From Candidatus Latescibacterota bacterium (GTDB taxonomy: Bacteria > Latescibacterota > UBA2968), in the NCBI GenBank assembly GCA_965208125.1, contig OZ242320.1, positions 3,904,001 through 3,968,000 of the forward strand: 64,000 nucleotides of DNA. Direction: 5' to 3'. The notes beneath the pieces were generated by a model that saw nothing but the letters and a program-made list of their open reading frames with translations, made no database searches and was not told the origin of the DNA. How positions within the stretch are numbered: position 1 is the first letter of the stretch; each line of letters begins with the position of its first letter. The position numbers and the translations under genes are program-made. Below are positions 5,595 through 24,395 of the stretch, piece after piece.

Positions 5595-6992
5595 TCAGTC
5601 ATTTTCGAATAATTCCGTCAGTATTGCCACCGTCGCTTCGACGATGCGCTCCAACGAGTCCGGCGCAAACTTGGCCCAGTAGGTGCAGTTGGCGTTGGTT
5701 TCGTGCCCTGGTCTTGCGCAGGCGTCGCTCGTGGGGAGGTAGCCGACGTATTGCGTGGACATGTGAGCGATGAAGGTGAGCTTCGCAGGCGACCTGGTCT
5801 TAATCTCCAATTGACCTTCCACGAACGGCTCGCCGGGCAGAGAAATGATAGCCATGTCGCCGATGCGGAAGACCTGGATTTCATACATGAATTGCGGCTC
5901 ACGATTTCGGCAAAGCTCGATGCTTTTCGTCGATGCGGCATGAAACCATGTGGGATCTACTTCGCCGTTGTCTTGTAGTTTCAGCGTTGGGTGTTCGGCC
6001 AGAATGCGGTTGACCTGGTCTTGCCGATCGTTGGGAATATCGCGATACGCCAGAGGGATTTTTTTGAAACGCCAATCGATCGAATCAACGTCTGCAAAGC
6101 TCAGCGATTCGATGACGGCCTGTGTGGTGTCCGCCAATTCATTCCCCATGCGCACGTGGTCGGGCGTGAAGTTGGGGGTAAAGGCAGGCCATGGATTGAC
6201 GTTGCCACAACATCCGTTGATGACCATGGGCGGGCAAGTCAGACTGTTCAGGTCTTTGACTTTTGCGCTCCACGCGCCGGGCCAGTCGGCGCAGACGGTA
6301 TTTTTTTCCCGAGCAAACACGTTGACCGGATGACAGGTAAAGTGCAGCAGCATCGCGGCCACATCACCCGCGGCCGATTGCGCGCACCACACACCCACCT
6401 GTGGGTCGGCAGGGCCTTCCATGTAAACGATGTCTGTCGGCCCCAGGGGTTTGGCGTCACTGGTGAAGGGCCACGGCATGCAGATATTGCCGCCGCGCAT
6501 CACGCCACGCCGATTAAAGGCCAGGTCGTCGCGAACGGCATGCCCCATGGCGACCTGCACTGGCGTTAACGCATCGTTCGCTTCCCGGATCGCGCGGGTC
6601 GCGCCGGCGACGGCCTGCTTCGTATAAGCGGCTTCACTACCGGTGATGTGCTCCTGATTAGCTCTCAGGTCAAGCGGGAAATCCGGGTCGAGCATGAGGG
6701 CGCCGCAACTCGGTGCCGAGTGATTCTGCAACGAATGCACCATCACGGCGTGGGGTTCAAAGCCCAGCGCGACAGCGCTTTCTCGAATGGCCCGGGTGTA
6801 GGGCAAAGTAACCGCCAACGTGTCTAACGTGATGATACACAATTTCGCGTCTTTGGCCTGGGCGACCATCACTTTGGCGTAAAGTGGATCGAGGATTTTT
6901 CGAGCAGGGCGGTGTTCTCCCATGCCGCTTCCGGCCAGGTGCGTGCCCAAAGGCGGTGTGATGCCGACGGCGGCTTGGCCTATTTGAAGCAT
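5595..6992 (-). CDS. Neutral/alkaline ceramidase-like amidohydrolase (hypothetical)
   Basis: ITPP, DPLYAK, H..HSAP, FTCHP, GCCGNVNP, LPGEPFVE, YVGYLPT motifs of the ceramidase-like fold. Confidence 0.7.
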   Translation of the reverse strand: MLQIGQAAVGITPPLGTHLAGSGMGEHRPARKILDPLYAKVMVAQAKDAKLCIITLDTLAVTLPYTRAIRESAVALGFEPHAVMVHSLQNHSAPSCGALMLDPDFPLDLRANQEHITGSEAAYTKQAVAGATRAIREANDALTPVQVAMGHAVRDDLAFNRRGVMRGGNICMPWPFTSDAKPLGPTDIVYMEGPADPQVGVWCAQSAAGDVAAMLLHFTCHPVNVFAREKNTVCADWPGAWSAKVKDLNSLTCPPMVINGCCGNVNPWPAFTPNFTPDHVRMGNELADTTQAVIESLSFADVDSIDWRFKKIPLAYRDIPNDRQDQVNRILAEHPTLKLQDNGEVDPTWFHAASTKSIELCRNREPQFMYEIQVFRIGDMAIISLPGEPFVEGQLEIKTRSPAKLTFIAHMSTQYVGYLPTSDACARPGHETNANCTYWAKFAPDSLERIVEATVAILTELFEND

Positions 6993-7211
6993 AGCACAAC
7001 ATCCTTGACGGGGAATGACCGGGTTTTTGGCTGAATTAATTCAATATACTCTGTATTTATGGTGAGTAATACTGAAATCGAACTGGGTAAGGCAAGCGTT
7101 ATTTGAATTATAACTTGCACCATCACCCCATCAGGGATAAATTGCAGACGAAGGTCGTTTAACCTATCCATATCGTCATAGGAATAAAAGCCGAGATCAC
7201 TAATTATCTTT

Positions 7212-8048
7212 ATGCACTGGCTCTTTTTTTCTATTATCCTCGACTTCGGTTTTGTCCAGCTTTTCAAGCTGGGACAAAGACGCGGCTGTTACGCGCCAGT
7301 GGTTGTTTCTGTAAACTACCTCGTCTTGGCTCTCGCAATTGCCATTTATCTCTTTGTTACCGATGCGTGGACATTTCCCCGTCTTGCCCTTTATACGGGG
7401 TTGGGAACTGGTACGGTTTTTATCAGTTCCATGTTGCTGATGAATCACGCGCTTACCCTCGCGCCTATCGGTTCTGTGGTTACGGCTTTTCGAATGTCCA
7501 TTGTCGTGCCCATTGTGCTGGGTATTTATCTCTGGGGCGAGTCTATGGCCCCAACGCAGTTTGTGGGGCTGCTTCTCGCGCTCAGTGCTCTGGCACTTAT
7601 GACTTCTCATCCGGGCAGAACCGCGCAAGTCAGAGGAATAAGAGCGTTTGGGTTGCTTATCGCGGTTTGTCTCTGTCAGGGTATAAGCCATACGTGCTTG
7701 CGATCTGTTCACTACAATGGTCTCGATCCCGTCTATTTACATGTCTTGATGTTCATCGGAGCAACCGCTGGACTGATAGGTGGTGTTGTCATTGCCCTGA
7801 AAAAACACCGACCACAAGGACCTGCGGTCAAACTCGGCGTTTTCATCGGTCTTTACAATGTCCTGGCGCTTTGCGTCATTATGACCGCATTAAGCAAGTT
7901 GCCAGGCACGCTTTTTTTTCCGACATTGGGATGTAGCGTTGTTGTGCTGGATAACCTCTTTGCCCATTTCTACTGGAAAGAACGCCTCGCCCGACCCGCG
8001 ATAGCCGGTGTGGGGATCGCTGTTCTTGCCGTTCTTCTGGTTTTGTGA
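7212..8048 (+). CDS. DMT/EamA family transporter
   Basis: 278 aa, about 10 hydrophobic helices in two repeats (LWGES.../YWKER...). Confidence 0.78.
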   Translation: MHWLFFSIILDFGFVQLFKLGQRRGCYAPVVVSVNYLVLALAIAIYLFVTDAWTFPRLALYTGLGTGTVFISSMLLMNHALTLAPIGSVVTAFRMSIVVPIVLGIYLWGESMAPTQFVGLLLALSALALMTSHPGRTAQVRGIRAFGLLIAVCLCQGISHTCLRSVHYNGLDPVYLHVLMFIGATAGLIGGVVIALKKHRPQGPAVKLGVFIGLYNVLALCVIMTALSKLPGTLFFPTLGCSVVVLDNLFAHFYWKERLARPAIAGVGIAVLAVLLVL

Positions 8049-12826: not shown

Positions 12827-14437
12827 TCACACTTCTCGACACGGCTTTCGCACGATGACGAGGTTGAGGGTGGGATCCTGAAGGGCGTCTCGGAAGACGC
12901 TACGCATATGGTCGTCGGTGTCTTGTTCCTGTACTTCGCGGACTCGCGACGCACCGCAGGCAAGGGCGAGGTCGCGCATGGTGACTTGCGGTCCGGCTTC
13001 GCCGTTTATTTCAACGCCCTGATCGGGAGTGGTTTGTCCGCCAGTGGTAAGCGAGCCTCCATTGTCGAGTACCATAACAATGGGTGTCGCACCTGTGGCG
13101 CGTGCATGGACGAGGGCATTGATGCCGCCGTGATAAAAGGCGGAGTCGCCACATATCGCAATGGTGCGTTCGGCAATGTCCGTTTTGCTCAGGCCACAGG
13201 CCACGCCAATGGCGGATCCCATCGAAAGTTTGGTGTCGAGCATAGGAGCGGCCATTACCACGCATCCCGGATCGGCAGATATAAAGGGGTTTTGACCGAG
13301 GGCATTGGCTTCTTCGCGCAGTGCAGTAAGGATTTCCGTGAAGGGGCAGCCAGCGCAGTGGTTTTTGCGAAAGGGTTTTTCGCTTTCCCAATTTTCTTCG
13401 GTGTAGCGCGTGGTTGGCGAGAAATCGGGGAGATAGTCGTCGAGTGCGTTTTGTATGTGCCAGCGGAAGAGTTCGCCCACGCTGGTGAGATGTCCCGTGC
13501 GTTTGCCAAGGATTGGCGGGGTAAAACCGGTGTCGTAACCAATGGCTTTAATGGCGTCTTCAACATAGGGATCGACTTCTTCAACGACGAGTACTTCGCT
13601 ACACTTTCCGAGAAAGTCCGCGATGAGTTTTTGCGGGAGGGGATACAGGGCACTGAGTTTGAGGATGGAGAGGTCAGATGTGTCGGCTCCGTCGAGTGCG
13701 TCGAGGAGTTTGGCGTGTACCATGCCACAGGCGATGATGCCTTTTTTTCCATCGCCATCTATGCTATTGAAGGGCAGGTCGCTAAATTGTGCGGTGGCGC
13801 GTGCGACTTTTTCGTGTAATTCTGCGTGGTTGCCTTCGGTTGTGCGAAGTGCCGATATCCAGCTCATTGGCTCGCGGTCGGGTTCACGGGTGGGGTGTTG
13901 CGCTGCGGGGCGAAAGTCGGAAAGAGCCTGCGTGCTGACGCTGTAACTTCTGGTCAGGCGCAATATCACGATGGATTGCAGGCTTTCTGAGTAGTCGAAA
14001 GCCCATTTTATCATGTCGCGGCCTTCCCCAGGCGTGGCGGGTTCGAGCATTGGAAGTTCGGCCAGGGGACCAAGGGTGCGTGTATCTTGTTCGTTTTGCG
14101 ATCCCCATGCGCCGGGGTCATCGCCCATGACAATGACGAGTCCGGCGTGTACACCGGTCATGTTGAGCACCATCAGGGTATCGAGTGCGACGTTCATGCC
14201 CACGCTTTTGAGGCATACGAGCGCGCGCTTGCCGCCCTGTGATACACCGGCAGCCATATCCAGGGCAATGCGTTCATTGATACACCATTCGGCATGGTGT
14301 CCGTGGTCTTTGGCCATTTCGGCCATGGCGTTAAATGTGTTTGTGCCGGGTGAGCCGGGATACCCGGTTACAACGCCGACGCCCGCTTCTACTGCACCCC
14401 AGGCCAGGGCGCGTTCTCCATCAATGGTTTGGGTCAT
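12827..14437 (-). CDS. iorA: Indolepyruvate:ferredoxin oxidoreductase alpha-subunit-like TPP enzyme
   Basis: GYPGSP, INERIAL, KSVGMNVA.D, DDPG..SQNEQD, CAGCP, D.GC, GDSAFYHGG..N TPP motif; start ATG 14437 with AGGAG RBS. Confidence 0.85.
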   Translation of the reverse strand: MTQTIDGERALAWGAVEAGVGVVTGYPGSPGTNTFNAMAEMAKDHGHHAEWCINERIALDMAAGVSQGGKRALVCLKSVGMNVALDTLMVLNMTGVHAGLVIVMGDDPGAWGSQNEQDTRTLGPLAELPMLEPATPGEGRDMIKWAFDYSESLQSIVILRLTRSYSVSTQALSDFRPAAQHPTREPDREPMSWISALRTTEGNHAELHEKVARATAQFSDLPFNSIDGDGKKGIIACGMVHAKLLDALDGADTSDLSILKLSALYPLPQKLIADFLGKCSEVLVVEEVDPYVEDAIKAIGYDTGFTPPILGKRTGHLTSVGELFRWHIQNALDDYLPDFSPTTRYTEENWESEKPFRKNHCAGCPFTEILTALREEANALGQNPFISADPGCVVMAAPMLDTKLSMGSAIGVACGLSKTDIAERTIAICGDSAFYHGGINALVHARATGATPIVMVLDNGGSLTTGGQTTPDQGVEINGEAGPQVTMRDLALACGASRVREVQEQDTDDHMRSVFRDALQDPTLNLVIVRKPCREV

Positions 14438-14542
14438 TTTTGTACTCCTGAATGAAAAATCGGGTGATAACATTGGAAATATTAAAGTATGTGTAGGTGT
14501 ATTTGTCAAGTAGAGAAGGGGTTGTACGGCGATGGGATAAAA

Positions 14543-15913
14543 TCAAATAAATCCAATTATACGCCAGTATAACAGGGTCAGCGGTAGCAGTGCGATGAGC
14601 GTTACCAGAGAAATTAGCGACATTACGAGTGCGAATTGGCCCATTCGAGCATAGCGAAAGCTGTATGCGACAATAAATGGCGCGCCCTGATAGGGAATGA
14701 AAACCACGCCTGTGCCGATTGCCAGACTGAGGGCGATGGGTAGGGGCGACAGGCCGAGTTGTGGACCGAGGTCGAGTAGAAAGGGGGCGAGCACGCCGCC
14801 AACCGCAGCGGTGTCCATTAAAAAATCAAATGGCACGGCCAAATACGCTATGATGGCGAGTTGGGCAATGGGGGTTTCGACTGTTTGGAGATGGTGGATG
14901 AATACGGATGCGAGGGCGCGGTTGAGGCCAGATTGTTCGAGGGCGTGACCAATGGCAAAAACCGCGGAGATAAATATGAGAAGGGGAAAATTGACTTTTT
15001 TGATGGTGTCAAAGGGCAGGGGACCCCAGCCGGGCAGGTAGCAGAGGAGGACGAGGCCCAGGCCGATATAGACCGGGTGAATGCCGTGTATAATATCGGT
15101 CGTCCACAGGAGAACACCTGCGATGAGAATGCCGAGTATTTTTTTTTCGGGACCGGTCATGTGTGTGGGAACATCGGCGATAGTGGAATGGCCCGAGAGA
15201 TCGGGTTCCCGCGAGGGGCGAAATAGCAAGCGGATAAGGCCGTAGAGCAGGCCAACGCGCAGTAGGCCAATGATGGGAAAGAGATAATAGGCCCATTCGC
15301 TCCAGTAGATTGTGATATTGCGCGATTCCAAAACGCCGAGAATGACCAGGTTGGGTACGCCGGCCGTCAGGATGCCCGTGCCGCTGTAATACGTGGCGCA
15401 GGTCAGCGAGAGAACGAGGGCAGCACTGACTTTTGAGTTGGGGGCTTCGCCGAGGGTTTTGAGCAGAGAGACGACCATTGGCATCAAGATGAGGACGCGC
15501 ACGACGCCAGAGGGGATCAGCAGTGCCATTGTTAGGCCCAGGATGTGCAGGCCAAAGACGAGTTGCCGATACCCACTCAGGCGACCGAGTACGCTTTGGG
15601 CCATTCGCGCCCCCAGCGGTGTTTCGGTAATGCCCAGGCTCAATGCCATTCCGGCAAAGACGAGCCAGACGGCTTTGCCGGAGAAGCCCTGAAATGTGGT
15701 TTCAAAAGAGAGAATTTTGAGAAGTGGAAAGAGTGTGAGGATGAAGATGGCGGTGTAGGAAATGGGGATGGGTTCAAAGGTCCAGAAAATAACGGTGAGC
15801 GCGGTGAGTGCGAGCGCCATGCGGGCAGATATGCCGAGGTCACTGGGAAAGATGAAAATAAATAGTGCCAGCGCGGGACCGAGGATAAGGCCAATGATTT
15901 GAGATCGGGTCAT
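14543..15913 (-). CDS. SLC13/DASS family anion symporter
   Basis: FWTFEPIP, LIPSG..R, TAGVPN, about 12 TM helices. Confidence 0.82.
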   Translation of the reverse strand: MTRSQIIGLILGPALALFIFIFPSDLGISARMALALTALTVIFWTFEPIPISYTAIFILTLFPLLKILSFETTFQGFSGKAVWLVFAGMALSLGITETPLGARMAQSVLGRLSGYRQLVFGLHILGLTMALLIPSGVVRVLILMPMVVSLLKTLGEAPNSKVSAALVLSLTCATYYSGTGILTAGVPNLVILGVLESRNITIYWSEWAYYLFPIIGLLRVGLLYGLIRLLFRPSREPDLSGHSTIADVPTHMTGPEKKILGILIAGVLLWTTDIIHGIHPVYIGLGLVLLCYLPGWGPLPFDTIKKVNFPLLIFISAVFAIGHALEQSGLNRALASVFIHHLQTVETPIAQLAIIAYLAVPFDFLMDTAAVGGVLAPFLLDLGPQLGLSPLPIALSLAIGTGVVFIPYQGAPFIVAYSFRYARMGQFALVMSLISLVTLIALLPLTLLYWRIIGFI

Positions 15914-15919
15914 AGGATT

Positions 15920-15943
15920 AGCGGTCAGCGGTCAGCTTTCAGC
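15920..15943. repeat. Short heptamer tandem repeat
   Basis: AGCGGTC-AGCGGTC-AGCTTTC-AGC. Confidence 0.6.
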
Positions 15944-16125
15944 CCTCTCCCATCCACCCCAAAGGCGATCAATCTGTTTTATTGTTGGGATTGGATTGGG
16001 CGATGAAACAACTAACAACATAATAGCGCAGTGAAGGAGAGACAAATGAATTGTGGGCAGATGGATTCGCTATTGATTAAGTACAAGAAATCGCGTAGTT
16101 TAGCGCGGAGAAAGGAGATAAGACT

Positions 16126-17295
16126 ATGAATTTTAGAGGCAAATTGGTTGATACGTCGCAGGTTGTGACCGTGCAAACAGATGGCGAGCAGATCGCTGCT
16201 ATTCATCGCGGGGTGGAGGGTGATGCGATTGGTGGAGATGATGTGTGGATTGCACCGGCGATTTTTGATGTGCAGGTCAATGGTGTGGGTGGGATCAACT
16301 ATAAAGCTAAAGATTTGACGGTGGAGAAAATTGTGGAGACAGCGGGGTGGATGCACAGGACTGGTACGGGTTTGTGGTGTCCAACGGTGACGACTTCATC
16401 TGAGGAAGATGCGGTTCACGGTCTGGAACTGTTGGCAAAGGCGTGTGAAGAATCAGAAGTCGCGCGCGCGTCTTTTGTCGGGTTTCACGTTGAGGGGCCT
16501 TATATCGCGTCTGAAGATGGTCCCCGCGGGGCGCATCCCCTGGCGCATGTGCGCGATCCGGATTGGGATGAATTTCAGCGGTATCAAGAAGCGGCTGGTG
16601 GGCGTATTGCGATTTTTACGCTTGCGCCCGAGCGAGACGGCGCATTGGAATTTATTGAGAAGGTGGCTGCAACAGGTGTTATTGTTTCAATTGGTCATTC
16701 GGGTGCGAGTCCCGAGCGCATCCAGGCGGCGGTTGCCGCCGGTGCCCAAATGTCAACCCATCTGGGCAATGGCGCGCATGCCGAGTTGCCGCGCCATCCC
16801 AATTATATATGGGAACAACTCGCGGCAGATGCGTTGTGGGCAGGGATTATTCCCGATGGATTTCATCTGCCGCCTGCGGTGTTGAAGAGTTTTTATCGCG
16901 CAAAAGGCAAAGAACGCCTGTGTTTGGTGAGCGATGTGGCATCTATCGCTGGTCTGCCGCCGGGTATTTACGGCAGCGAGAGCGGGTTGGGACAGAGCGA
17001 GTTACACGCCAATGGCAAAATTTCTCTGGCGGGAACGCCTTATCTGGCGGGTGCGGGTTTGTTTTTGGATAGTGGCATTCCCAATGCCGTGCGGTTTACA
17101 GACGCTTCGCTGTCCGATGCCATTGAAATGACATCGATCAATCCGGCGCGTTTGTTGGGGATAGAAGAGCGCGTGGGGTCTGTGGAAGCCGGCAAAGAGG
17201 CGAGTCTGTCTCTGTTCCGCTGGGAAGAGGGACAGGAGAAATTGGACGTGGTGGCAACGGTGGTGCGCGGGCGGATTGTTTATCAGGCTGCATAA
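16126..17295 (+). CDS. nagA: N-acetylglucosamine-6-phosphate deacetylase family
   Basis: DVQVNG, HVEGPYI, GAH, TLAPE, GHS, THLGNG, DGFH, LAG, NPARLLG. Confidence 0.85.
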   Translation: MNFRGKLVDTSQVVTVQTDGEQIAAIHRGVEGDAIGGDDVWIAPAIFDVQVNGVGGINYKAKDLTVEKIVETAGWMHRTGTGLWCPTVTTSSEEDAVHGLELLAKACEESEVARASFVGFHVEGPYIASEDGPRGAHPLAHVRDPDWDEFQRYQEAAGGRIAIFTLAPERDGALEFIEKVAATGVIVSIGHSGASPERIQAAVAAGAQMSTHLGNGAHAELPRHPNYIWEQLAADALWAGIIPDGFHLPPAVLKSFYRAKGKERLCLVSDVASIAGLPPGIYGSESGLGQSELHANGKISLAGTPYLAGAGLFLDSGIPNAVRFTDASLSDAIEMTSINPARLLGIEERVGSVEAGKEASLSLFRWEEGQEKLDVVATVVRGRIVYQAA

Positions 17296-17306
17296 AGGAA
17301 TGCGAT

Positions 17307-18155
17307 ATGGCGAAGAAAAAGGTTGTTCTAACAGGTGCATCGGGCTATGTGGCAGGGCGGATGTTGCCGGCATTGCGCGAGAGGTACGATCTGACATTGC
17401 TGGATGTGAAGACGACCAACCGCGAGAGTGAAGAGGTTGAAGGCGTGCAAGTTGTGGATTTGGAAAATCCGGATCGGGATGCGTATCGCGCCCATTTTCA
17501 AGGTGCCGATGCCGTGGTACACAGTGGGTTTAAGGGGACCGTAGATTGGCAACACACGGATTATTGGAAAGAGTCCGATAATATTCGGATGTGCTACAAT
17601 GTGTACCAAACGTGTGTCGAAGAAGGTGTGAAACGCATTGTGGTGATGAGTTCAAATCACGCATGCGATTTTTACGAGCGGTTGATCTGGGCTGACCGAT
17701 TGGATTTTGCCACGACTGATATGCTGCCTTTGTCTGATAATTTTTACGGTTGGGCAAAGTCGTCGTACGAACATCTGGCTTTTGTGTTTGCAACGGGTAA
17801 TGCGACCAATGGCAAGCGGTTGGAGAGTGTTCACATCCGCATTGGCGCGCCCCGAGATACCATTATGGAAGGGCAGTCGGCAGATGATTTGAAGCAGTTG
17901 CACCGGGAATTGGGCGCGTATTTGAGTGCGCGGGATTTGTCGCAATTGGTGATTAAGAGTATTGAGGCAGAGAATATTGAGGATGAAAATGGGGTGCCGT
18001 TTCAGGTGTTTTTTGGCATTAGTGGGAATACGCACCGGTTCTGGAATATCGACAATGCAAGACGCGTTGTGGGATACGCGCCAGAGGATGATAGTCAGAT
18101 TCGATTTGCGGGGAATATTGCAGATATTATTCGAGAAGCGCAGAAAAAGCAATAA
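17307..18155 (+). CDS. NAD-dependent epimerase/dehydratase (uronate dehydrogenase-like)
   Basis: TGASGYVA, SSNHA, YGWAK, RIG, LS.RDL, SGN...W..D.A....GY.P.D. Confidence 0.8.
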   Translation: MAKKKVVLTGASGYVAGRMLPALRERYDLTLLDVKTTNRESEEVEGVQVVDLENPDRDAYRAHFQGADAVVHSGFKGTVDWQHTDYWKESDNIRMCYNVYQTCVEEGVKRIVVMSSNHACDFYERLIWADRLDFATTDMLPLSDNFYGWAKSSYEHLAFVFATGNATNGKRLESVHIRIGAPRDTIMEGQSADDLKQLHRELGAYLSARDLSQLVIKSIEAENIEDENGVPFQVFFGISGNTHRFWNIDNARRVVGYAPEDDSQIRFAGNIADIIREAQKKQ

Positions 18156-18161
18156 CGGGTT

Positions 18162-19292
18162 TTGAATATGAAAATTACGGGGTTTGAGACGATTCCCATT
18201 CGGGGTCGGGCGATGATTTTGAAGATGTTTACGGATGAGGGATTGGTGGGGTATGGCGAGCCGATGAATTACGAGCATTGGCGCGTGGTGGCGCAGGCTG
18301 TAGAGGATATGGCCGAGTACCTGGTGGGCAAAGATCCGCTGAATATCGAAGATCACTGGCAGGCGATGTATCGCTCGAGTTATAGCCGGAGTATGCCGGT
18401 GTTGGTCGGTGCGCTGAGTGGGATTGAGATGGCGATGTGGGATGTGTTTGGCAAAATGGTTGGGTTGCCGGTTTGGAAACTTTTGGGTGGGAAAGTTCGC
18501 GATCGCATTCGCGTGTACACAGGTACGGGCGGGACGACGCCAGAAGAATGTGCGGAGAATGCGAGCCAGAAGGTGGCAGAGGGCTTTCGCGCTGTGAAGA
18601 TGGGAGCTTCACCGAGTCCTGTGAGATTTGTCGATACGCCAGAGAAAATAGATTTTATGGTTTCTCGCGTTGCTGCTGTGCGCGAAGCTGTGGGCTATTC
18701 GGTCGATATTGCGGTGGATTTGCATCGGCGGTTGAGTCCGACGATGGCTGCGATTCTGGTGAAGGAGTTGGAGCCGCTGCGTCCTCTGTTCGCAGAGGAG
18801 CCGTGTCATCCGGAAAATAACGAGGCGTTATTGGCGCTGTCCCGGGGTACAACTGTGCCCATTGCCACGGGTGAACGGCATTTGACGCGCTGGGGATTTC
18901 GCGAGCTCATCGAGCGAGAGATGTGCGCGATTTTGCAACCGGATATTCGCCATTGTGGGGGTATGTTGGAATTGAAAAAGATTGCGGGGATGGCAGAGAT
19001 TCACAATATGGCGATTGCACCGCATAACGCGGCAGGGCCTGTGGGGGTGGCAGCGTCGGTGCATGTGATGGCAACGATTCCAAATCTGTTGATTTGCGAG
19101 GGGGGGCATAACCGTGGAGAGGGCTTGTTTAAGACGCCTCTAATTTTTCGAGATGGTTTTATTGAATTGCCAACCGAGCCGGGTTTGGGTGTGGATATGG
19201 ACGATGATACGCTCGAGGCATTGCGCGATGAATCTTATCGCCTGCGCGGGATGTTCTGGCATGAAGATGACGGTTCTTTTGCGGATTATTGA
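18162..19292 (+). CDS. Mandelate racemase/enolase-superfamily sugar-acid dehydratase (DgoD-like)
   Basis: TDEG..G.GE, SGIEMAMWD..GK, VDLH, EEP, TGER, QPD..HCGG, PHN. Confidence 0.87.
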   Translation: MNMKITGFETIPIRGRAMILKMFTDEGLVGYGEPMNYEHWRVVAQAVEDMAEYLVGKDPLNIEDHWQAMYRSSYSRSMPVLVGALSGIEMAMWDVFGKMVGLPVWKLLGGKVRDRIRVYTGTGGTTPEECAENASQKVAEGFRAVKMGASPSPVRFVDTPEKIDFMVSRVAAVREAVGYSVDIAVDLHRRLSPTMAAILVKELEPLRPLFAEEPCHPENNEALLALSRGTTVPIATGERHLTRWGFRELIEREMCAILQPDIRHCGGMLELKKIAGMAEIHNMAIAPHNAAGPVGVAASVHVMATIPNLLICEGGHNRGEGLFKTPLIFRDGFIELPTEPGLGVDMDDDTLEALRDESYRLRGMFWHEDDGSFADY

Positions 19293-19305
19293 GAAAAAGC
19301 GTTTG

Positions 19306-20496
19306 ATGATCGTTGTGATTCTGTTGCTATTTGCCAGCAGTTATGTGGAGGCGATAGAGAGGGATGTGCTGGCAGTCCGGCGAGAATACAACGATGTGTC
19401 CGCTGCTGTAGATAGTCTCGTGCGGATGATGCAGGTGGCAGATGCCGAGGTGTTGAAGAAGCTGCCCGAAACGCGTCCCGAGCGCATTTTGCCCGAGGGG
19501 ATGACGGCTGTGATGATTTTTTGGGCAGATGACGAAGCGCGGGTTTGGCTCAATGATTTTCCCGTGGGTGAGACCCGGTTGACACCCGTGGAAGTAACCG
19601 TTCCGGATTTGTATTTTCAAGGACAAAATCGCCTGCGTGTGCGGTGCTGGGATACAGATAGGGTAGAGAGTGGTTTTTTGGGTGGGTTATACCTGAAAGA
19701 TGGTGCTGGCAAGTTGTACCCCATTGTGGTTTCCAATGGGGCCTGGGAGACCTCAGGAGGACGGGCAACGGAAATTACTTATGCCCATCCGATGCCGGAT
19801 ATTCCCGGTGCGCAACCGATTTGGGACGTGCGTATGTTTGGGTTTGTAGATATGGCCATCACATTTGACCGGGGTGCGATTGATCGCGCTGTAGAAACCG
19901 CGTCTGCAAGACCAATGGCTGCGCGGCAACAGGCGATGGATTATCACACCTTTGCCCAACAACTCGCTATTTTGCAGGGTCGGCGAGAAAAATTAAGAGC
20001 AGATTTAGCGCGTCAGGGCGATCTCAGTGTGCCGCTTTACAATTGGGAACGCGCCCGTTCTGCATCGCTGACACTGGGAAAAGCCGCGCCTTTGACTGAA
20101 AAGGTGTCGGCGCCAGTGGCAGAAAATGTGCGGTCTTGGTCGGAGAAGTTACCGGCGGTGCAGCAGCAGTTGATTTATCCAGACCGCCGCGCGTTAAAAG
20201 GAGAAGGTGCTGTAACTGCGGTCGAGGATGATGTGGTTTCCACTGCGAGTGATCGCGGTAGTCGCGAGCAGGCGTATCGCCCTCCTGAAGAGCGCGGTGG
20301 GACGAAAAGTGAAACAAAAACAAAAGATGAGGGAGTCGATGCCCAGGTGCAGCCGCAGAGGATGAGACGCGGTGGTGGGGGTGGGCAATCGAGTCAGGCT
20401 ACGCGATTGGGATTGTTGTTGCCAACGCTGATAGTGGGAATTTATGTGTTATATGTGGCCATACGCTGGCAATCATTAATGGGAGAAAGCGATTGA
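19306..20496 (+). CDS. Exported protein: lectin/jelly-roll-like domain, coiled coil, C-terminal membrane anchor
   Basis: Signal peptide (IVVILLLFASSYVEA); WADDEARVWLN..G.N.L.V..GF.G.L..VSN..W..IPGA.PIW pattern; heptad segment FAQQLAILQGRREKLRADL; C-terminal TM LGLLLPTLIVGIYVLYVAI; start uncertain. Confidence 0.7.
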   Translation: MIVVILLLFASSYVEAIERDVLAVRREYNDVSAAVDSLVRMMQVADAEVLKKLPETRPERILPEGMTAVMIFWADDEARVWLNDFPVGETRLTPVEVTVPDLYFQGQNRLRVRCWDTDRVESGFLGGLYLKDGAGKLYPIVVSNGAWETSGGRATEITYAHPMPDIPGAQPIWDVRMFGFVDMAITFDRGAIDRAVETASARPMAARQQAMDYHTFAQQLAILQGRREKLRADLARQGDLSVPLYNWERARSASLTLGKAAPLTEKVSAPVAENVRSWSEKLPAVQQQLIYPDRRALKGEGAVTAVEDDVVSTASDRGSREQAYRPPEERGGTKSETKTKDEGVDAQVQPQRMRRGGGGGQSSQATRLGLLLPTLIVGIYVLYVAIRWQSLMGESD

Positions 20497-21254
20497 TGTA
20501 CGGATTACACTGGTCTGAATTGTTATCACTGGTTCTTTTTTGGGTGGTGTGTGCGATAGCAGGTGCATTGATTTTAATGCAACGCTTAAGTACTATTTGT
20601 CGTTACGAAAAGCAATTTGGCCTGCCCGAGTCCAATTGGTCTGGTGCTATAATAGGTGGATTGAGCGGTGCTGGCGTGGCGAGTATTGGTATTTATTTTT
20701 ATTTTTTTGCACCAGCAGCCGCGGGTTGGGTCGAGTGGACGGGGCGTTCGGCTTATGTGCTCGTTTTGGGCAGTTCGGCAGCGCATCTGGTCACGTTTAT
20801 TCATTTTTGGCGGCGATGGGGTGCAGAAGGCGCGGAAACAGGTAATTTGACGGCATTGCGCCAGGAGCAGGTGGATAAATTTCGCCAGAGCCGCGAGAAT
20901 TATGCGGACTTAAAAGCTCGCGATGACGAGGCAGTAGATGAGTTACTCGCTGTGTTTGGCGAGCGTTTGTTGTCCGAGCAGCGCGCTTTGAGTCGCATTC
21001 CGTTTTATGGGTATTTGGGTACTGTGTGCGGTATTTTGCTGATGGCCCAAGAGCTGACCAGACTGGATGAAGCGACCGAGACGTTTAAGGTGTTGCGCGA
21101 TATGGCAGGTGGACTGGTGCTGGCATTTCAGACAACGCTCGTCGCCTTGCTTGCCTATTTGCCGCTTCGAAAGGGCTATGATATGTTGCTGAATCGCATG
21201 TCTGATCTGGAACGCAAATGGCTGGATATGCGCGAAGAGGAGAAAAGAGGGTGA
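20493..21254 (+). CDS. MotA/TolQ/ExbB proton-channel family protein
   Basis: IPFYGYLGTVCGI and GLVLAFQTTLVAL match P..G..GTV.G and A..TT..G signatures; three extra N-terminal TMs. Confidence 0.8.
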   Translation: MMYGLHWSELLSLVLFWVVCAIAGALILMQRLSTICRYEKQFGLPESNWSGAIIGGLSGAGVASIGIYFYFFAPAAAGWVEWTGRSAYVLVLGSSAAHLVTFIHFWRRWGAEGAETGNLTALRQEQVDKFRQSRENYADLKARDDEAVDELLAVFGERLLSEQRALSRIPFYGYLGTVCGILLMAQELTRLDEATETFKVLRDMAGGLVLAFQTTLVALLAYLPLRKGYDMLLNRMSDLERKWLDMREEEKRG

Positions 21255-21673
21255 GACGACGTTTTTTACAGCGCGCGGTGGCCGAAGCCGAAGCGCACGA
21301 CGTGAGCAAAGAGTTGTTCCTGGGCATTATGATGTTGATGCTGTGCCTGGGGATTATGATTTTGAATGTGTCACAGCCCGTGTGGCGCGTCTATCACCAC
21401 AATCCCGAACCGGGAGATGTGGTGATTTTATATACTTCCAGAGGTCTGGCGTTTTCAGAAGATGGACGATCTGCAACACGCAGTTTGGGACCGGGCGAGT
21501 TTCGCAAAACAGTAAATGATCTGGTTGCAGAACCCGATCGGCATTTGCATCTGTTTCTGAAGGGGGGCAGCCGAGAGCGTATGGTGAATGACGCGGCTTA
21601 TGCAGATTCTCTTTTGTCTGCTGGCACAGCGGGTCAAAAGGTGCGCCCCGCCGTATATGTGCATCTGTGGTAA
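21251..21673 (+). CDS. ExbD/TolR/MotB-like single-TM partner (atypical)
   Basis: GTG start overlapping upstream TGA; basic N-terminus RRRFLQR, one TM (ELFLGIMMLMLCLGIMILNV), about 90-aa alpha/beta periplasmic domain. Confidence 0.55.
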   Translation: MRRRFLQRAVAEAEAHDVSKELFLGIMMLMLCLGIMILNVSQPVWRVYHHNPEPGDVVILYTSRGLAFSEDGRSATRSLGPGEFRKTVNDLVAEPDRHLHLFLKGGSRERMVNDAAYADSLLSAGTAGQKVRPAVYVHLW

Positions 21674-21699
21674 ATCGCAATATTTCAATATTAAACAAC

Positions 21700-21728
21700 A
21701 ACCCCGGTAGTAGTATCACTGGGGTTTT
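21700..21728 (+). terminator. Putative intrinsic terminator
   Basis: AACCCCGGT-9 nt-ACTGGGGTT followed by T's. Confidence 0.5.
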
Positions 21729-22276
21729 GTGTTTCGTTTATCGCGTTCATCTTTGTATTTCTGCATAAAGTACTCAAAAGAGGTATTCTTACTCGACGCC
21801 GTTTCTCGATCAAATAACTTCATGATCTCCTGCATAAAATCTATTCTTGAGTCGAATCTCTCTGGTATCATACTATCAAACTGTTCTTTTGAAATACGAT
21901 CTGTTTTGTTGAAGCCTTTCCGCATTCTGATTTGACGGCGAGAATCATCATTTAGCCCAGCGAGATACCAACTTTCTATTTCCCGACGCACGATTAAAAT
22001 TCGATCCTCTGATAGCTTCTCAAACTGGGATGTAATCCACTCTTTCTTGGCTGTCACGCAGGGGGAATCGTCCATGTCCGCTACAAAAATGTAATCGGCG
22101 TACGGCATAGAATTGATACTATTCAGGAAACCATTTACCTTTTTTAATTTTTGCTGACTATATTTCCAAAGAGAGACGTGATCACAAATTTGTTTATACA
22201 GGGGGCTGATTACGCGATCAAAGAATCGTTCATCGTCGTCTCCTTCTATGAGAATAAAGAGCCTCCGATACGCCAA
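21716..22276 (-). CDS. DUF4276/TOPRIM-like partner of ABC ATPase
   Basis: LIEGDDD, VADMDDSPC, RREIESWYLAG; TTG start at 22276 after GGAGG; AT-rich. Confidence 0.7.
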   Translation of the reverse strand: MAYRRLFILIEGDDDERFFDRVISPLYKQICDHVSLWKYSQQKLKKVNGFLNSINSMPYADYIFVADMDDSPCVTAKKEWITSQFEKLSEDRILIVRREIESWYLAGLNDDSRRQIRMRKGFNKTDRISKEQFDSMIPERFDSRIDFMQEIMKLFDRETASSKNTSFEYFMQKYKDERDKRNTKPQ

Positions 22277-22277
22277 C

Positions 22278-23543
22278 CTATACCTCCAACAAGTTCTGGA
22301 TAAATAGATCGTCAATACCTATTTCATTTTTCAAGAAAATTTTGATTTCATCACTATCCGCTGGCTTTGTTATCTTGGAAAATCCTTCATCGTCTCTCGT
22401 TATGAGCAAGATATTCTCCAGATCTGCCTGTTTAACCATTTCTGGATTATGAGTTGTTGCCAGTATCTGTTTACTTCTTGATGCCTCCCTGAACATGTCC
22501 ATCACTCTTGAGATTAAGTAAGGATGGACATTCCTTTCAGGTTCTTCTATAATGACTGCCTGTTTCTGTTGGAAGTAGAGCGCGATGATTAAAGCTATAG
22601 TATTGACAGTGCCATCAGAAATCAAAAAAGCTGGTAATCCATCCTCCTCAGCATATTTTTCATGTAGCCTGAAGAATATGGATTTATCTACTGCCTTTTC
22701 TACATTTATATCGTGAATGAATGGCAGGATATCCCGAAATAAATTGAGAAATCTTCGTCTATCTTCTTCCTCCTTCATAATATTGTTAAGCACTATAGCG
22801 AGATTACTACCATCCCTCTCCAATTCTGATAGACCTGTGATGGGTGCAGGTCTCTTAGGTAACTTGGGATCAAAGTCGTAGATGCCGATGTTCCTAAACC
22901 CATCCAAGGCTGATTGTACGTACAGATCAACAATTGGAGACTCTATCAGGAGGGCATTTTCATCATACGGAATGTTCCTGAAAATTGGCGCGCCGTCCAT
23001 AAATAATGCAGGTGCTATGTCAGAGTCTGTTGAATGTATCTTTAATTCTCCACCAAAATTGGAAAATTTGATGCTTAATTTCGCGGAATCATCTCGTTTT
23101 TCTTCCTCATCAATAAATTTTACGTGGGAATAGGTTAAAGTCATTCTATCTTGAGCAATATAATATCCACCCTCTTTTTCATAAAATTGCAAAGAAAATT
23201 CATAATCTACTTTATAGATTGTGATTGGAAGAGATGATCTAGGGGTTCCATCTTCATTACGTCTTACAGACCACCAACACTTAAAATCACCCTGCATAAC
23301 TACGCGAAACGAAAGAGGCTGTGACTGTGCTATCTTTATATTTTGTAGATACTCTACTCCACCCTGAAGTGAGATGGCATTTTCCAATCCGTGATTAACA
23401 ATATCTCTCAAAAATTGGAAGGCTTGAACAAGATTAGATTTTCCCGAAGCATTCGCTCCAACCAGTAAGTTGAAGTCGTTCAAGTGAATAGATAGGTTCT
23501 CGAAACTCTTAAAGTTTGATATTTCAATTTTTGTAATTTTCAT
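22278..23543 (-). CDS. AAA_21/ABC-type ATPase (putative defence)
   Basis: I.NFKSF, GANASGKSN, ISDGT, IIEEPE, TTHNP; AT-rich. Confidence 0.88.
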   Translation of the reverse strand: MKITKIEISNFKSFENLSIHLNDFNLLVGANASGKSNLVQAFQFLRDIVNHGLENAISLQGGVEYLQNIKIAQSQPLSFRVVMQGDFKCWWSVRRNEDGTPRSSLPITIYKVDYEFSLQFYEKEGGYYIAQDRMTLTYSHVKFIDEEEKRDDSAKLSIKFSNFGGELKIHSTDSDIAPALFMDGAPIFRNIPYDENALLIESPIVDLYVQSALDGFRNIGIYDFDPKLPKRPAPITGLSELERDGSNLAIVLNNIMKEEEDRRRFLNLFRDILPFIHDINVEKAVDKSIFFRLHEKYAEEDGLPAFLISDGTVNTIALIIALYFQQKQAVIIEEPERNVHPYLISRVMDMFREASRSKQILATTHNPEMVKQADLENILLITRDDEGFSKITKPADSDEIKIFLKNEIGIDDLFIQNLLEV

Positions 23544-23636
23544 ATTGGCAGCCTTGCAGGAATAGGCTTGATCCCTTTTACCACACGACCTTGTCCCTAT
23601 CTGCGAAAAAGATTTTCACAGCGATATTTCGCTCGC

Positions 23637-24395
23637 CTATTGAAGGGTGCGGGCGAATAGGTCGAGGACCGCGTCCCAGGATTTTTCGGCTGCTTTCTCG
23701 TGGTAGTGCGTTAAACGCTGGGGAAAGAAATAGCCGTGTAGCGCGCCGGGCATAAAGTCAATGCGATGTGGGACGTCACAGCGGGTGAGTTCGGTTTTGT
23801 AGAGTTGTAGGTGTTCTTTGGTTGCGCCGGCATCCTGGTCTGCCCAGCCAAAGTAGCCTTCGGCTCTGAGTTTGGGTATGGCGAGATGGGGCGAGTCCGA
23901 TGCATCGGTGACGAGTTTGCCGCCGTGAATGGAGGCAAAGGCGAGAACCTGGTCGGGATACGCCGCTGCTGCAAAGAGGGCGTGGCGGCCGCCCATGCAG
24001 GTGCCGATAGTGCCGACCCGTTGGGCATCGGCTTGAGGTTCTTCGTTGTCGAGGTGGCGAAGCAATGCGCCCGTGTCCTCAATGACCATGGCATTGGTCG
24101 TGCTGGTGTTGAGGTTCATCGGGTGCAGGGGATCCGTTTTTTCGAGATCGAGATCGCCGCTCATGAATTTTTCGGGGTTGTAAGACGGATTGCCCATGCG
24201 GTAAAATAGTGAAGGGAGGACGGTGTAATATCCCGCGCGAGCAAAACGACGGCACATGTTTTTCAATTCATCGCGAATGCCAAATATGTCAAAGTAGAAG
24301 ATGACAGCGGGATGCGGTCCTTCGCCTTCTGGATGAAAGACACAGGTTGGCATTGTACCGTCTGAAGTTGCAACTTCAATGGTTTTTTCGATCAT
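23637..24395 (-). CDS. Dienelactone hydrolase family protein
   Basis: DIFGIR, GTCMGG nucleophile, HGG, GALHGY. Confidence 0.88.
   Translation of the reverse strand: MIEKTIEVATSDGTMPTCVFHPEGEGPHPAVIFYFDIFGIRDELKNMCRRFARAGYYTVLPSLFYRMGNPSYNPEKFMSGDLDLEKTDPLHPMNLNTSTTNAMVIEDTGALLRHLDNEEPQADAQRVGTIGTCMGGRHALFAAAAYPDQVLAFASIHGGKLVTDASDSPHLAIPKLRAEGYFGWADQDAGATKEHLQLYKTELTRCDVPHRIDFMPGALHGYFFPQRLTHYHEKAAEKSWDAVLDLFARTLQ

Follow-up and report, generated by a model that had tools for sequence, protein, structure and literature searches.

A conserved three-gene unit in one class of Latescibacterota with a putative TolQR/ExbBD-type motor pair and a predicted C-anchored partner protein

Gene content of the locus

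The window analyzed here is a stretch of 64,000 nucleotides from a Candidatus Latescibacterota bacterium (assembly GCA_965208125.1, contig OZ242320.1, positions 3,904,001 to 3,968,000 of the forward strand), the genome of which consists of a single contig of 5.75 Mb and is 96% complete. It contains three adjacent genes, hereafter referred to as g1, g2 and g3, which lie in the same orientation on the + strand at 19261/19306–21673 (window positions throughout) and may encode an ion-driven motor (g2 and g3) and an exported protein acting as its arm (g1). The corresponding open reading frames (ORFs) on this strand were 19153..20496, 20493..21254 (253 amino acids, aa) and 21218..21673 (151 aa). An initial annotation of this DNA described three genes with overlapping stop and start codons, and the junction letters confirmed this: the g1/g2 junction reads TGATG (20494–20498), with one A common to the g1 stop codon TGA and the g2 start codon ATG, and the g2/g3 junction reads GTGA (21251–21254), with the GTG of g3 overlapping the stop codon of g2. 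The triad occupies the downstream half of a co-oriented run of six genes on the + strand (16126–21673), in which it is preceded by genes for a NagA-like amidohydrolase, an epimerase-type short-chain reductase and a galactonate dehydratase. In a promoter and terminator scan of 15800–22400, sites were rarer than in shuffled sequences, and none between the dehydratase and g3 helped to define a transcript.

The end of the locus at 21673 was retained from the initial annotation, but its g1 start at 19306 was not. Translation from ATG 19306 yields 396 aa, whereas ATG 19261 yields 411 aa and overlaps the dehydratase stop by 32 nucleotides. The homologues have about 405–412 aa, so ATG 19261 is the most likely start; the predicted signal peptide then gains a basic N-region. 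We therefore place g1 at 19261..20496. The g2 gene extends over 20496..21254, its residues being numbered here from TTG 20493 (253 aa). The most likely g3 start is GTG 21251, since the resulting protein of 140 aa matches its relatives (139–140 aa), and this gene thus spans 21251..21673.

Conservation and distribution of the triad

Through relatives of g2, we fetched 34 related loci. The order g1-g2-g3 was kept in 33 of them, and the remaining locus is cut by a contig end and starts inside g2. A sample of 168 Latescibacterota genomes was searched for g1 and g3: g3 was found in 107 genomes, g1 in 111 and both in 105. In 101 of these 105 genomes, g1 preceded g3 on the same strand, at a distance of 1.2–2.5 kb between the starts of the two matches. 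The other four are fragmented assemblies with g1 and g3 on different contigs, two of them having a second, partial g1 match on the contig that carries g3. All 105 genomes belong to three families (f1, f2 and f4) of one class. Outside these families, a single f3 genome had g1 only, and neither gene was found in the other 36 genomes, which represent ten families. Six genomes had only g1 and two only g3; of two g1-only genomes inspected, one is cut by a contig end and the other is the f3 genome (G037). At its locus (L059, G037:C1:331000-343000), an ORF of 166 aa on the other strand, at ~6850–7400, resembles by eye an IS200/IS605-type transposase.

The triad is single-copy, with g3 scoring 218–264 bits across the class, and identity between loci falls from g3 to g2 and from g2 to g1. 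The kept order and the adjacency in these genomes are beyond a chance arrangement. The three genes are syntenic across the class, and they form a real, conserved, lineage-restricted unit that is independent of its neighbors.

Gene g2 and the MotA/TolQ/ExbB family

The g2 protein matched the Pfam family MotA_ExbB (PF01618) with 28.7 bits (cut-off 22.9), with residues 165–243 aligned to profile positions 52–125 of 127, and a whole-genome scan with PF01618 gave 29.9 bits at the position of g2. Most of its 198 homologues carry PF01618 and have been named MotA, TolQ or ExbB by NCBI or JGI. The matched region, which we consider to be the channel core (20985..21221, + strand), contains IPFYGYLGTVCGI and GGLVLAFQTTLVALLAYLPLRK. 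The two core motifs quoted in the initial annotation are invariant in 35 homologues, and P170, G173, G176, T177, G180, T214, T215 and P224 are invariant in the same number of sequences. A profile of the 35 homologues was compared with solved structures, and TolQ (8odt_A) was the only relevant relative (E 0.036, last two helices only). The scores with the NCBIfam equivalogs for TolQ and ExbB were 21.4 and 17.5 bits, respectively, against cut-offs of 221 and 135. When g2 was compared by hhalign with the two canonical ExbB proteins encoded in this genome, its residues 169–239 aligned with residues 127–192 of the genome's own ExbB (E 1.1e-4, probability 57%). In this alignment P170, G176, T177, T214 and T215 of g2 correspond to P128, G134, T135, T167 and T168.

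Hydropathy analysis placed hydrophobic segments at residues 10–28, 53–80 and 87–105, before a putative cytoplasmic loop of about 60 residues. The helices typical of the family follow at about 169–190 and 207–225, and the protein ends 28 residues past the last of them. The helix at 169–190 fell under the hydropathy threshold and was placed by homology. The estimate of about five transmembrane segments in the initial annotation is reproduced by these five predicted segments, a count that comes from hydropathy. The distribution of Lys and Arg residues fits a layout of five helices, N-out and C-in. Between the second and third segments lies a short loop, GW.EW.GR..Y, that is invariant in 35 sequences. 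The ExbB/TolQ subgroup is characterized by three membrane helices and a Glu residue in the last helix, and g2 has neither. Judging from its sequence, g2 is a very divergent MotA/TolQ/ExbB-family protein with three extra N-terminal hydrophobic segments.

Gene g3 and the TolR/ExbD fold

The g3 protein, for which 249 homologues were identified, mostly of 139–140 aa, has one predicted membrane helix (residues 22–40, hydropathy 2.58) directly after the charged cluster H16-D17-V-S19-K20-E21 (cluster and helix at 21296..21370, + strand). Residues H16, D17, S19, K20 and E21 are invariant in an alignment of 33 sequences. E21 stands immediately before 19 hydrophobic residues, and D17 is one helical turn further in. 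The position of E21 is presumably that at which ExbD, TolR and MotB carry their essential Asp. The initial annotation proposed a Glu or an upstream Asp for this role, and both are invariant. It also noted that no OmpA-type domain was visible; indeed, Pfam gave no OmpA-like domain match in the window g3 or in any of the 33 family members, and the protein thus differs from MotB, which is defined by a peptidoglycan-binding domain of this kind.

A sequence-level route from g3 to ExbD was discarded, all searches being empty, and the predicted structure alone provided the link. A genome scan with PF02472 detected only three canonical ExbD genes, all of them elsewhere. The AlphaFold2 model of g3 had a predicted local distance difference test (pLDDT) score of 80 and showed a long helix followed by the succession strand-strand-strand-helix-strand-helix-strand. 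With Foldseek, the first three ranks were occupied by TolR 5by4 (probability 0.87), ExbD 8vgc (0.80) and 8vgd, with E values of 0.14–0.27. A search independent of Foldseek ranked TolR 5by4 first among 48,161 chains (Z 6.7, root-mean-square deviation [rmsd] 4.0, 91 of 105 residues). In a third comparison, which like the other two put TolR and ExbD first, the six best chains were all TolR or ExbD (Z 6.7–5.4), including ExbD 8p9r, 8vgc, 8pek and 8vgd at Z 6.2–5.9, and the next, unrelated chain reached 4.9. We describe g3 as TolR/ExbD-like because the same small family ranks first each time, with coverage of nearly the whole domain, and because the gene directly follows a MotA/ExbB gene. The ExbD-like character proposed in the initial annotation is thus upheld by predicted fold and position, rather than by membership in the sequence family.

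Gene g1, a predicted C-anchored stalk protein

The ORF, the homologue lengths and an AlphaFold2 model indicate that g1 is probably an exported stalk protein anchored at its C-terminus. The signal peptide would comprise residues 1–31 (19261..19353, + strand), with putative cleavage after SSYVEA. This prediction is based on a hydrophobic segment at residues 15–33 and on an N-terminus that is variable among 37 homologues and ends in small residues. In one contig from an RNA library (X17, record 19), 65 other letters replace window positions 19307–19379 (71 letters), with matching flanks on both sides. The signal-peptide stretch is swapped between strains, in agreement with its poor conservation in the alignment.

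The model had a mean pLDDT of 64, and its only confident part was a beta-sandwich (residues 82–203, blocks with pLDDT 84–90). It comprises a helix at 3–67, including the signal peptide, the sandwich, a helix at 227–251, helices at 280–312, a disordered stretch at 314–381 and a membrane helix at 386–406. Hydropathy (2.37) places the membrane helix at residues 383–401 (20407..20463), before a tail of 10 residues; L385 and Y395 are invariant in this helix, which contains no His. The model and the structure matches below agree with the layout proposed in the initial annotation, which consisted of a signal peptide, a lectin-like sandwich, helices, a linker and a C-terminal anchor.

No Pfam family was matched by any of the 37 family members. 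A g1 profile searched against 1.84 billion representatives found only 64 clusters at E≤0.001, all from its own family or fragments of it, and no bridge to a known family; the ESM Atlas gave a top score of 0.77 and no usable lead. By sequence, g1 is a member of no known family. The head (residues ~76–205, 19486..19875, + strand) was best matched by structure comparison to residues 165–299 of the Streptomyces avermitilis rhamnosidase 3w5n_A (Z 8.2, rmsd 3.0, 106 residues aligned; 3.0–3.2 and 104–106 for 3w5m and 3w5n together). The other close matches were a Pleurotus ostreatus lectin (Z 7.9–8.2), the D. thermophilum rhamnosidase (Z 6.9) and CBM60-type modules (Z 6.1–6.2). The S. avermitilis rhamnosidase also filled the first two rows with Foldseek (E 6–7e-3, best 6.4e-3), and the single near-significant match of the sequence profile was a GH2 sugar-binding domain (7sf2_A, E 0.1). 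The best structural matches align about 100 residues with 14–18% identity and no sequence-family match, and Z values of 7–8 are common for unrelated folds, according to the tool's own warning. In a wide structure search, generic coiled coils scored equally high on the helical parts of g1, and the match of the head is therefore a suggestion rather than proof.

We take residues 165–299 of the 3W5N chain to be its CBM67 module. According to PMC4690510, 3W5N is reported to contain CBM67, a calcium-dependent, non-catalytic, rhamnose-binding module. The model suggests that the g1 head is a beta-sandwich closest to calcium-dependent sugar-binding modules such as the CBM67 region of the rhamnosidase and the Pleurotus lectin. 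The head motifs FWADDEA, TRLTP, CWDTD and PDIP..IW are invariant and kept into family f4, the g1 proteins of which are 29–38% identical to that of the window. Its acidic clusters D90-D91-E92 and D131/D133, also invariant, are candidates only for calcium or sugar binding. Residues of the helices are kept as well in the alignment reaching family f4. The otherwise variable linker holds three kept short motifs (LTLGKAG.L, LKG and R..Y.PP). In the family alignment the last two lie in LIYPDRRxLKGE (304–315) and RxxAYRPPEER (335–345), which together span 20170..20295 (+ strand). L312, K313, G314, R335, Y339, P341 and P342 are invariant, including family f4, and the invariant linker motifs sit in a stretch with pLDDT <50.

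A possible motor with a glycan-binding arm

From the protein families, predicted folds, gene layout and co-inheritance described above, we infer a 5:2 assembly, ion flow, docking of g1, sugar binding by its head and a target in the envelope. The reading that we favor, and to which we give an even chance, is that g2 and g3 form an ion-driven motor of the TolQR/ExbBD type and that g1 is its dedicated C-anchored arm, with a sugar-binding-like head acting on an envelope glycan. It is supported by the Pfam match and kept channel residues of g2, the structure rankings of g3 and its invariant D17 and E21 residues, the overlapping codons, a gene order that 33 of the 34 loci share, the adjacency of g1 and g3 in 101 of 105 genomes, and the change of flanking genes around a constant triad. 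Matches of the g1 head with two aligners and a weak profile, and the invariant linker motifs of g1, point in the same direction. In this inner-membrane motor of the 5:2 type, g2 would make up the ring on the outside and g3 the pair at its center. The ion path would run between T177, T214 and T215 of g2 and two acidic residues of g3, D17 and E21, which lie where its helix meets the cytoplasm, and the TolR/ExbD-like domain of g3 would sit in the periplasm. The g1 protein would be exported, with its C-terminal helix in the membrane, a flexible linker of about 70 residues, a short helical stalk above it and the head on top. This head, probably calcium-dependent, would grip an envelope glycan or glycoconjugate. 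Docking might involve the linker motifs (LKG; R..Y.PP) and the periplasmic domain of g3, in the manner of the TonB D-box on ExbD; alternatively, the g1 membrane helix and the three additional helices at the N-terminus of g2 might pack together.

Several results weigh against a motor with g1 as its arm. At the level of g2, the match to the MotA/ExbB family covers the last 80 residues only, and L210 occupies the position of the conserved last-helix Glu (E163) of the genome's own ExbB. None of the 33 members of the g3 family matched PF02472 at E≤10, g3 had no PDB sequence match at the same threshold, and its comparison with the three ExbD proteins of the genome gave an hhalign probability of 0.3%. 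To our knowledge, no well-studied B subunit has a Lys (here K20) beside the acidic residue (here E21). The structural scores are modest for both predicted folds, with Z values below 8 and Foldseek E values of 0.14 or worse for g3, and a Z of about 8 for g1, the other structure scores of which are likewise modest. Finally, G037, the f3 genome, keeps an intact g1, whereas an IS200-like insertion truncates its g2 to about 44 residues and g3 is missing. A complex prediction for two g3 chains and g1 residues 215–411, with alignments, yielded ipSAE values of 0.11 and 0.06 (mark 0.32), which speak neither for nor against binding.

A bolder proposal, which we put forward tentatively and think rather less likely to be right than wrong, is that the triad represents a third class of partner for 5:2 motors. 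The exported, C-anchored arm would be a mirror image of TonB and TolA, with a calcium-dependent lectin head, and would dock by LKG/R..Y.PP onto the TolR-like dimer or onto the extra N-terminal helices of the ring subunit. The Glu of the ring would have been replaced with Leu and the acidic relay moved to the D-x3-E of the axle, and an envelope glycan would be pulled by the machine or would serve as its track.

Alternative explanations and genomic neighborhood

The alternative that best survives, unlikely as we consider it, accepts the g2/g3 motor but makes g1 an anchor or assembly factor, for example with its head on the glycan strands of peptidoglycan, in a role in envelope integrity resembling that of Tol-Pal. 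The absence of an OmpA-like domain from g3 favors this possibility, as MotB gets its wall attachment from such a domain. Moreover, the triad is single-copy and conserved like a housekeeping set, and no match to the OmpA family (PF00691), Pal (TIGR02802) or TolB_N was found in the window genome at E≤0.001. However, OmpA domains were present in many triad-bearing genomes (19 of 30 in f1 and 53 of 76 in f4). The TolB_N control matched only two proteobacteria, so the absence of TolB_N from the window genome says little. The domains of TolR and ExbD can contact the cell wall themselves, which also counts against a separate anchor. In favor of the anchor role, a gene for a tetratricopeptide repeat (TPR) protein adjoins g1 in several f4 loci: it overlaps the g1 start in four f4 loci (eight fetched, seven examined), and in L034 a single base separates its end from g1. 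Ton and Tol motors likewise have TPR genes beside them (PMC12204202, section 8).

The phylum survey showed no inverse pattern between the triad and OmpA, and a replacement of Tol-Pal by the triad in an OmpA-less genome was thus ruled out. The OmpA domain is absent from whole genera of the phylum (g10, 0 of 15; g11, 0 of 2). In the genus of the window, weak matches were obtained in nine of 20 genomes, eight of the nine with E values of 4e-9 to 1.4e-7. The lack of OmpA, Pal and TolB_N matches in the window genome (G000) is surprising, given that the bacterium has two membranes.

A second alternative, which we judge improbable, places the triad in a nutrient pathway, along the lines of the glycan capture proposed in the initial annotation. 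By capture or import, it would supply the NagA-like deacetylase, the dehydrogenase and the galactonate dehydratase encoded upstream with a glycan or a sugar acid. The g1 frame either begins inside the dehydratase gene or almost touches it. The dehydratase passed the NCBIfam cut-off for galactonate dehydratase (NF010624, 406.6 bits against 311), and the g1 head resembles sugar-binding modules. The dehydratase gene precedes the triad in 32 of the 34 loci and that of the epimerase-type reductase in 29. The NagA-like gene, the product of which scored under the TIGR00221 cut-off (207.7 bits against 225.65), is present in only 13 loci. The f4-type loci (eight and L034) nevertheless all keep the triad, and neither the dehydratase nor the epimerase-type reductase was found at E≤1e-5 in any of the nine. 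For the f4 neighbors, 22 flanking ORFs from seven of the eight fetched loci were submitted to Pfam: a gene for a Na/Ca exchanger lies two or three genes upstream in five of the seven loci, and one for a FabG-type reductase is found upstream in six. The description of the triad as the end of a nagA-dehydrogenase-dehydratase operon consequently fails for f4, where these two genes, often with the TPR gene, take the place of the sugar-acid genes. In addition, none of the flanking ORFs submitted to Pfam or NCBIfam was identified as a gene for a transporter or a TonB-dependent receptor.

Contigs assembled from four RNA libraries of four studies, two of them labelled as sponge metagenome, one as coral metagenome and one with a coded organism, cover the region at 88–99% identity. 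One contig of 3948 letters extends over 17300–19674, from the reductase to g1, across the dehydratase/g1 junction, as expected if the triad served the upstream pathway; however, a contig of two genes is no proof of one transcript. Another contig, of 1583 letters (19923–21471), comprises the end of g1, the whole of g2 and the start of g3, across both junctions. These contigs are a weak hint that relatives express the triad genes, since they are assembled, DNA carry-over is possible and a multi-gene contig does not establish a single transcript; stretches without cover carry no information.

In the f4 loci (L064–L071 and L034), the triad is followed by two convergent genes for proteins of about 255–290 aa that match no Pfam family. 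The same two convergent genes, and farther on a sigma-70 gene, occur in L017, L021 and L030. The convergent downstream protein of f2 and f4 loci has only a distant match in the window genome, 0.76 Mb away, and the f4 TPR protein was not found there with one query. Both were therefore rejected as parts of the module in this genome. As the flanks change between families while the triad stays, the neighbors are not part of the triad, and the upstream sugar-acid genes are specific to some lineages. Two further genes lie upstream in the window, on the minus strand. One, divergent from the six-gene run, is like those for DASS-family anion symporters (14543–15913, 156.9 bits against a cut-off of 198.6); the other is like that for the indolepyruvate ferredoxin oxidoreductase alpha subunit (12827–14509, 412 bits against 651).

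It is also conceivable, if decidedly improbable, that g2 and g3 are not rotary and form a diverged ion-conducting or sensing complex, involved for example in cation handling, with g1 as its periplasmic sensor. The replacement of the last-helix Glu by Leu in g2, the unusual H-D-x-S-K-E cluster of g3 and the nearby Na/Ca exchanger gene of most scanned f4 loci are consistent with such a complex, as are the calcium-dependent modules (CBM67, PMC4690510) that are the closest structural matches of the head. By contrast, the channel-lining Thr, Pro and Gly residues of g2 are invariant, and the layout of a B subunit is kept in g3. There is also no cytoplasmic output domain, the tail of g1 having 10 residues and that of g2 28 residues past the last helix.

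Downstream of g3, a pair of minus-strand genes (21716–23543) encodes a protein of 199 aa and an AAA_21 ATPase of 421 aa that match the PADLOC candidate system HEC-01 (HEC-01B, E 2.2e-7; HEC-01A, E 3e-54). This pair, the only defense-like neighbors of the triad, is present in only four of the 34 related loci and therefore appears to be an inserted variable island; the GC content falls to 0.425 in 22001–24000. A Zorya-like anti-phage system formed with this ATPase pair, the alternative raised in the initial annotation, could be supported by the MotAB-like motor of Zorya (PDB titles), but it is close to refuted by the rarity and opposite strand of the pair, by the lack of any match of g1, g2 or g3 to the 5027 PADLOC models, Zorya included, by the absence from g2 of the long cytoplasmic tail of ZorA, and by the single-copy, vertically conserved triad with its fixed place across the class, unlike a gene of a defense island.

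Two other loci of the window genome encode MotA/ExbB-family proteins. The first (L037, G000:C1:4862897-4866145) encodes a protein of 437 aa in which an N-terminal domain is fused to a MotA_ExbB core (43.8 bits). The next two proteins have 176 aa, with an ExbD match below threshold (19.8 bits, cut-off 25.4), and 298 aa, without a family. A comparison of the N-terminal domain of the 437-aa protein with the g1 head gave an hhalign probability of 0.4%, and thus no evidence of a fusion. The second (L038, G000:C1:3682253-3685564) encodes a vWA protein, an FHA protein, a MotA_ExbB-family protein of 261 aa (39.5 bits), a second FHA protein and a kinase-like protein, by eye a Ser/Thr kinase; no ExbD-like gene was seen within these limits.

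Comparison with known motor systems

Flagella, nutrient import, envelope integrity, gliding and phage defense all draw on ion-driven 5:2 motors, and recent surveys indicate that many divergent versions with unknown partners are still to be found (PMC12505986; PMC12204202, section 8). Like the TolQ-TolR and ExbB-ExbD proton motors, the triad has adjacent, translationally coupled genes for the two motor subunits. The g2 protein belongs by its sequence to the same Pfam family, has TolQ as its best solved relative and keeps the Pro, Gly-Thr and Thr-Thr residues of the channel. The g3 protein has an N-terminal helix, acidic residues at the cytoplasmic end of it and a periplasmic domain with the predicted TolR/ExbD fold. 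However, three hydrophobic segments precede the cytoplasmic loop of g2, where TolQ and ExbB have one, and Leu takes the place of the last-helix Glu; g3 is not detectable as ExbD or TolR with any of the sequence methods used and carries D17 and E21, with K20, rather than the single Asp of ExbD and TolR.

The g1 protein resembles TonB and TolA in its single predicted membrane helix, long flexible linker and globular periplasmic head, and in being encoded beside motor genes. Its linker has conserved short motifs near the membrane, as does that of TonB, the D-box of which binds ExbD (PDB titles 8vgc, 8p9r). Nevertheless, this partner is neither TonB nor TolA: the predicted topology is reversed, with a signal peptide and a C-terminal anchor, and the head is modelled as a beta-sandwich. 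PMC12204202 (section 8) describes an SHLS-type motif in the membrane helix of transducers, whereas the anchor helix of g1 lacks both His and any such motif. No TonB_C match was found in the window g1 or in the 37 family members, and the 12 TonB_C matches of the genome all lie away from the locus. Nor can g1 be the axle, as a separate TolR-like gene, g3, is present.

Related precedents are the vWA-headed and TPH-vWA transducers (Williams-Jones et al. 2025, PMC12204202), which synteny and models have suggested, as yet untested, to work with divergent TolQR-like motors. The triad would likewise supply a non-Ton, non-Tol partner for such a motor, often with a TPR gene alongside. However, g1 contains no vWA domain (Pfam, 0 of 37 members) and is anchored at the other end, and section 8 of PMC12204202, the part concerned, does not describe a lectin-headed or C-anchored partner. 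The "generic ion transporter" (GIT) relatives of MotA/ExbB carry extra domains such as DUF2341 and DUF3450 according to a 2025 mBio study (PMC12505986). Features of this group that recur in the triad are a compact cytoplasmic domain, the lack of an OmpA-type domain in the B subunit and additions specific to a lineage. Unlike the GIT fusions, its extra module is a separate C-anchored protein, and DUF2341 was matched by none of the 37 g1 members. A literature search returned no description of the triad; supplements were outside this search, so the family may sit unnamed in survey tables.

The triad provides a clean and compact case, with three genes, about 800 residues and independence from its neighbors. 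Its narrow distribution restricts its reach, as it occurs in three families of a single uncultured class within the Latescibacterota. New features are a partner oriented opposite to TonB and TolA, with a sugar-binding-like head, and a small subunit that is past recognition by sequence and seems to have kept its fold and an acidic cluster at the membrane edge. If the motor reading is correct, the rules by which 5:2 motors bind and move their partners would be wider than those known, and the triad would show which residues the ion path needs. The triad resembles ExbBD-TonB and TolQR-TolA in its logic and belongs with none of the TonB/TolA, MotB, Zorya and vWA systems, in keeping with the view expressed in PMC12204202 that more motor-driven envelope systems await discovery.

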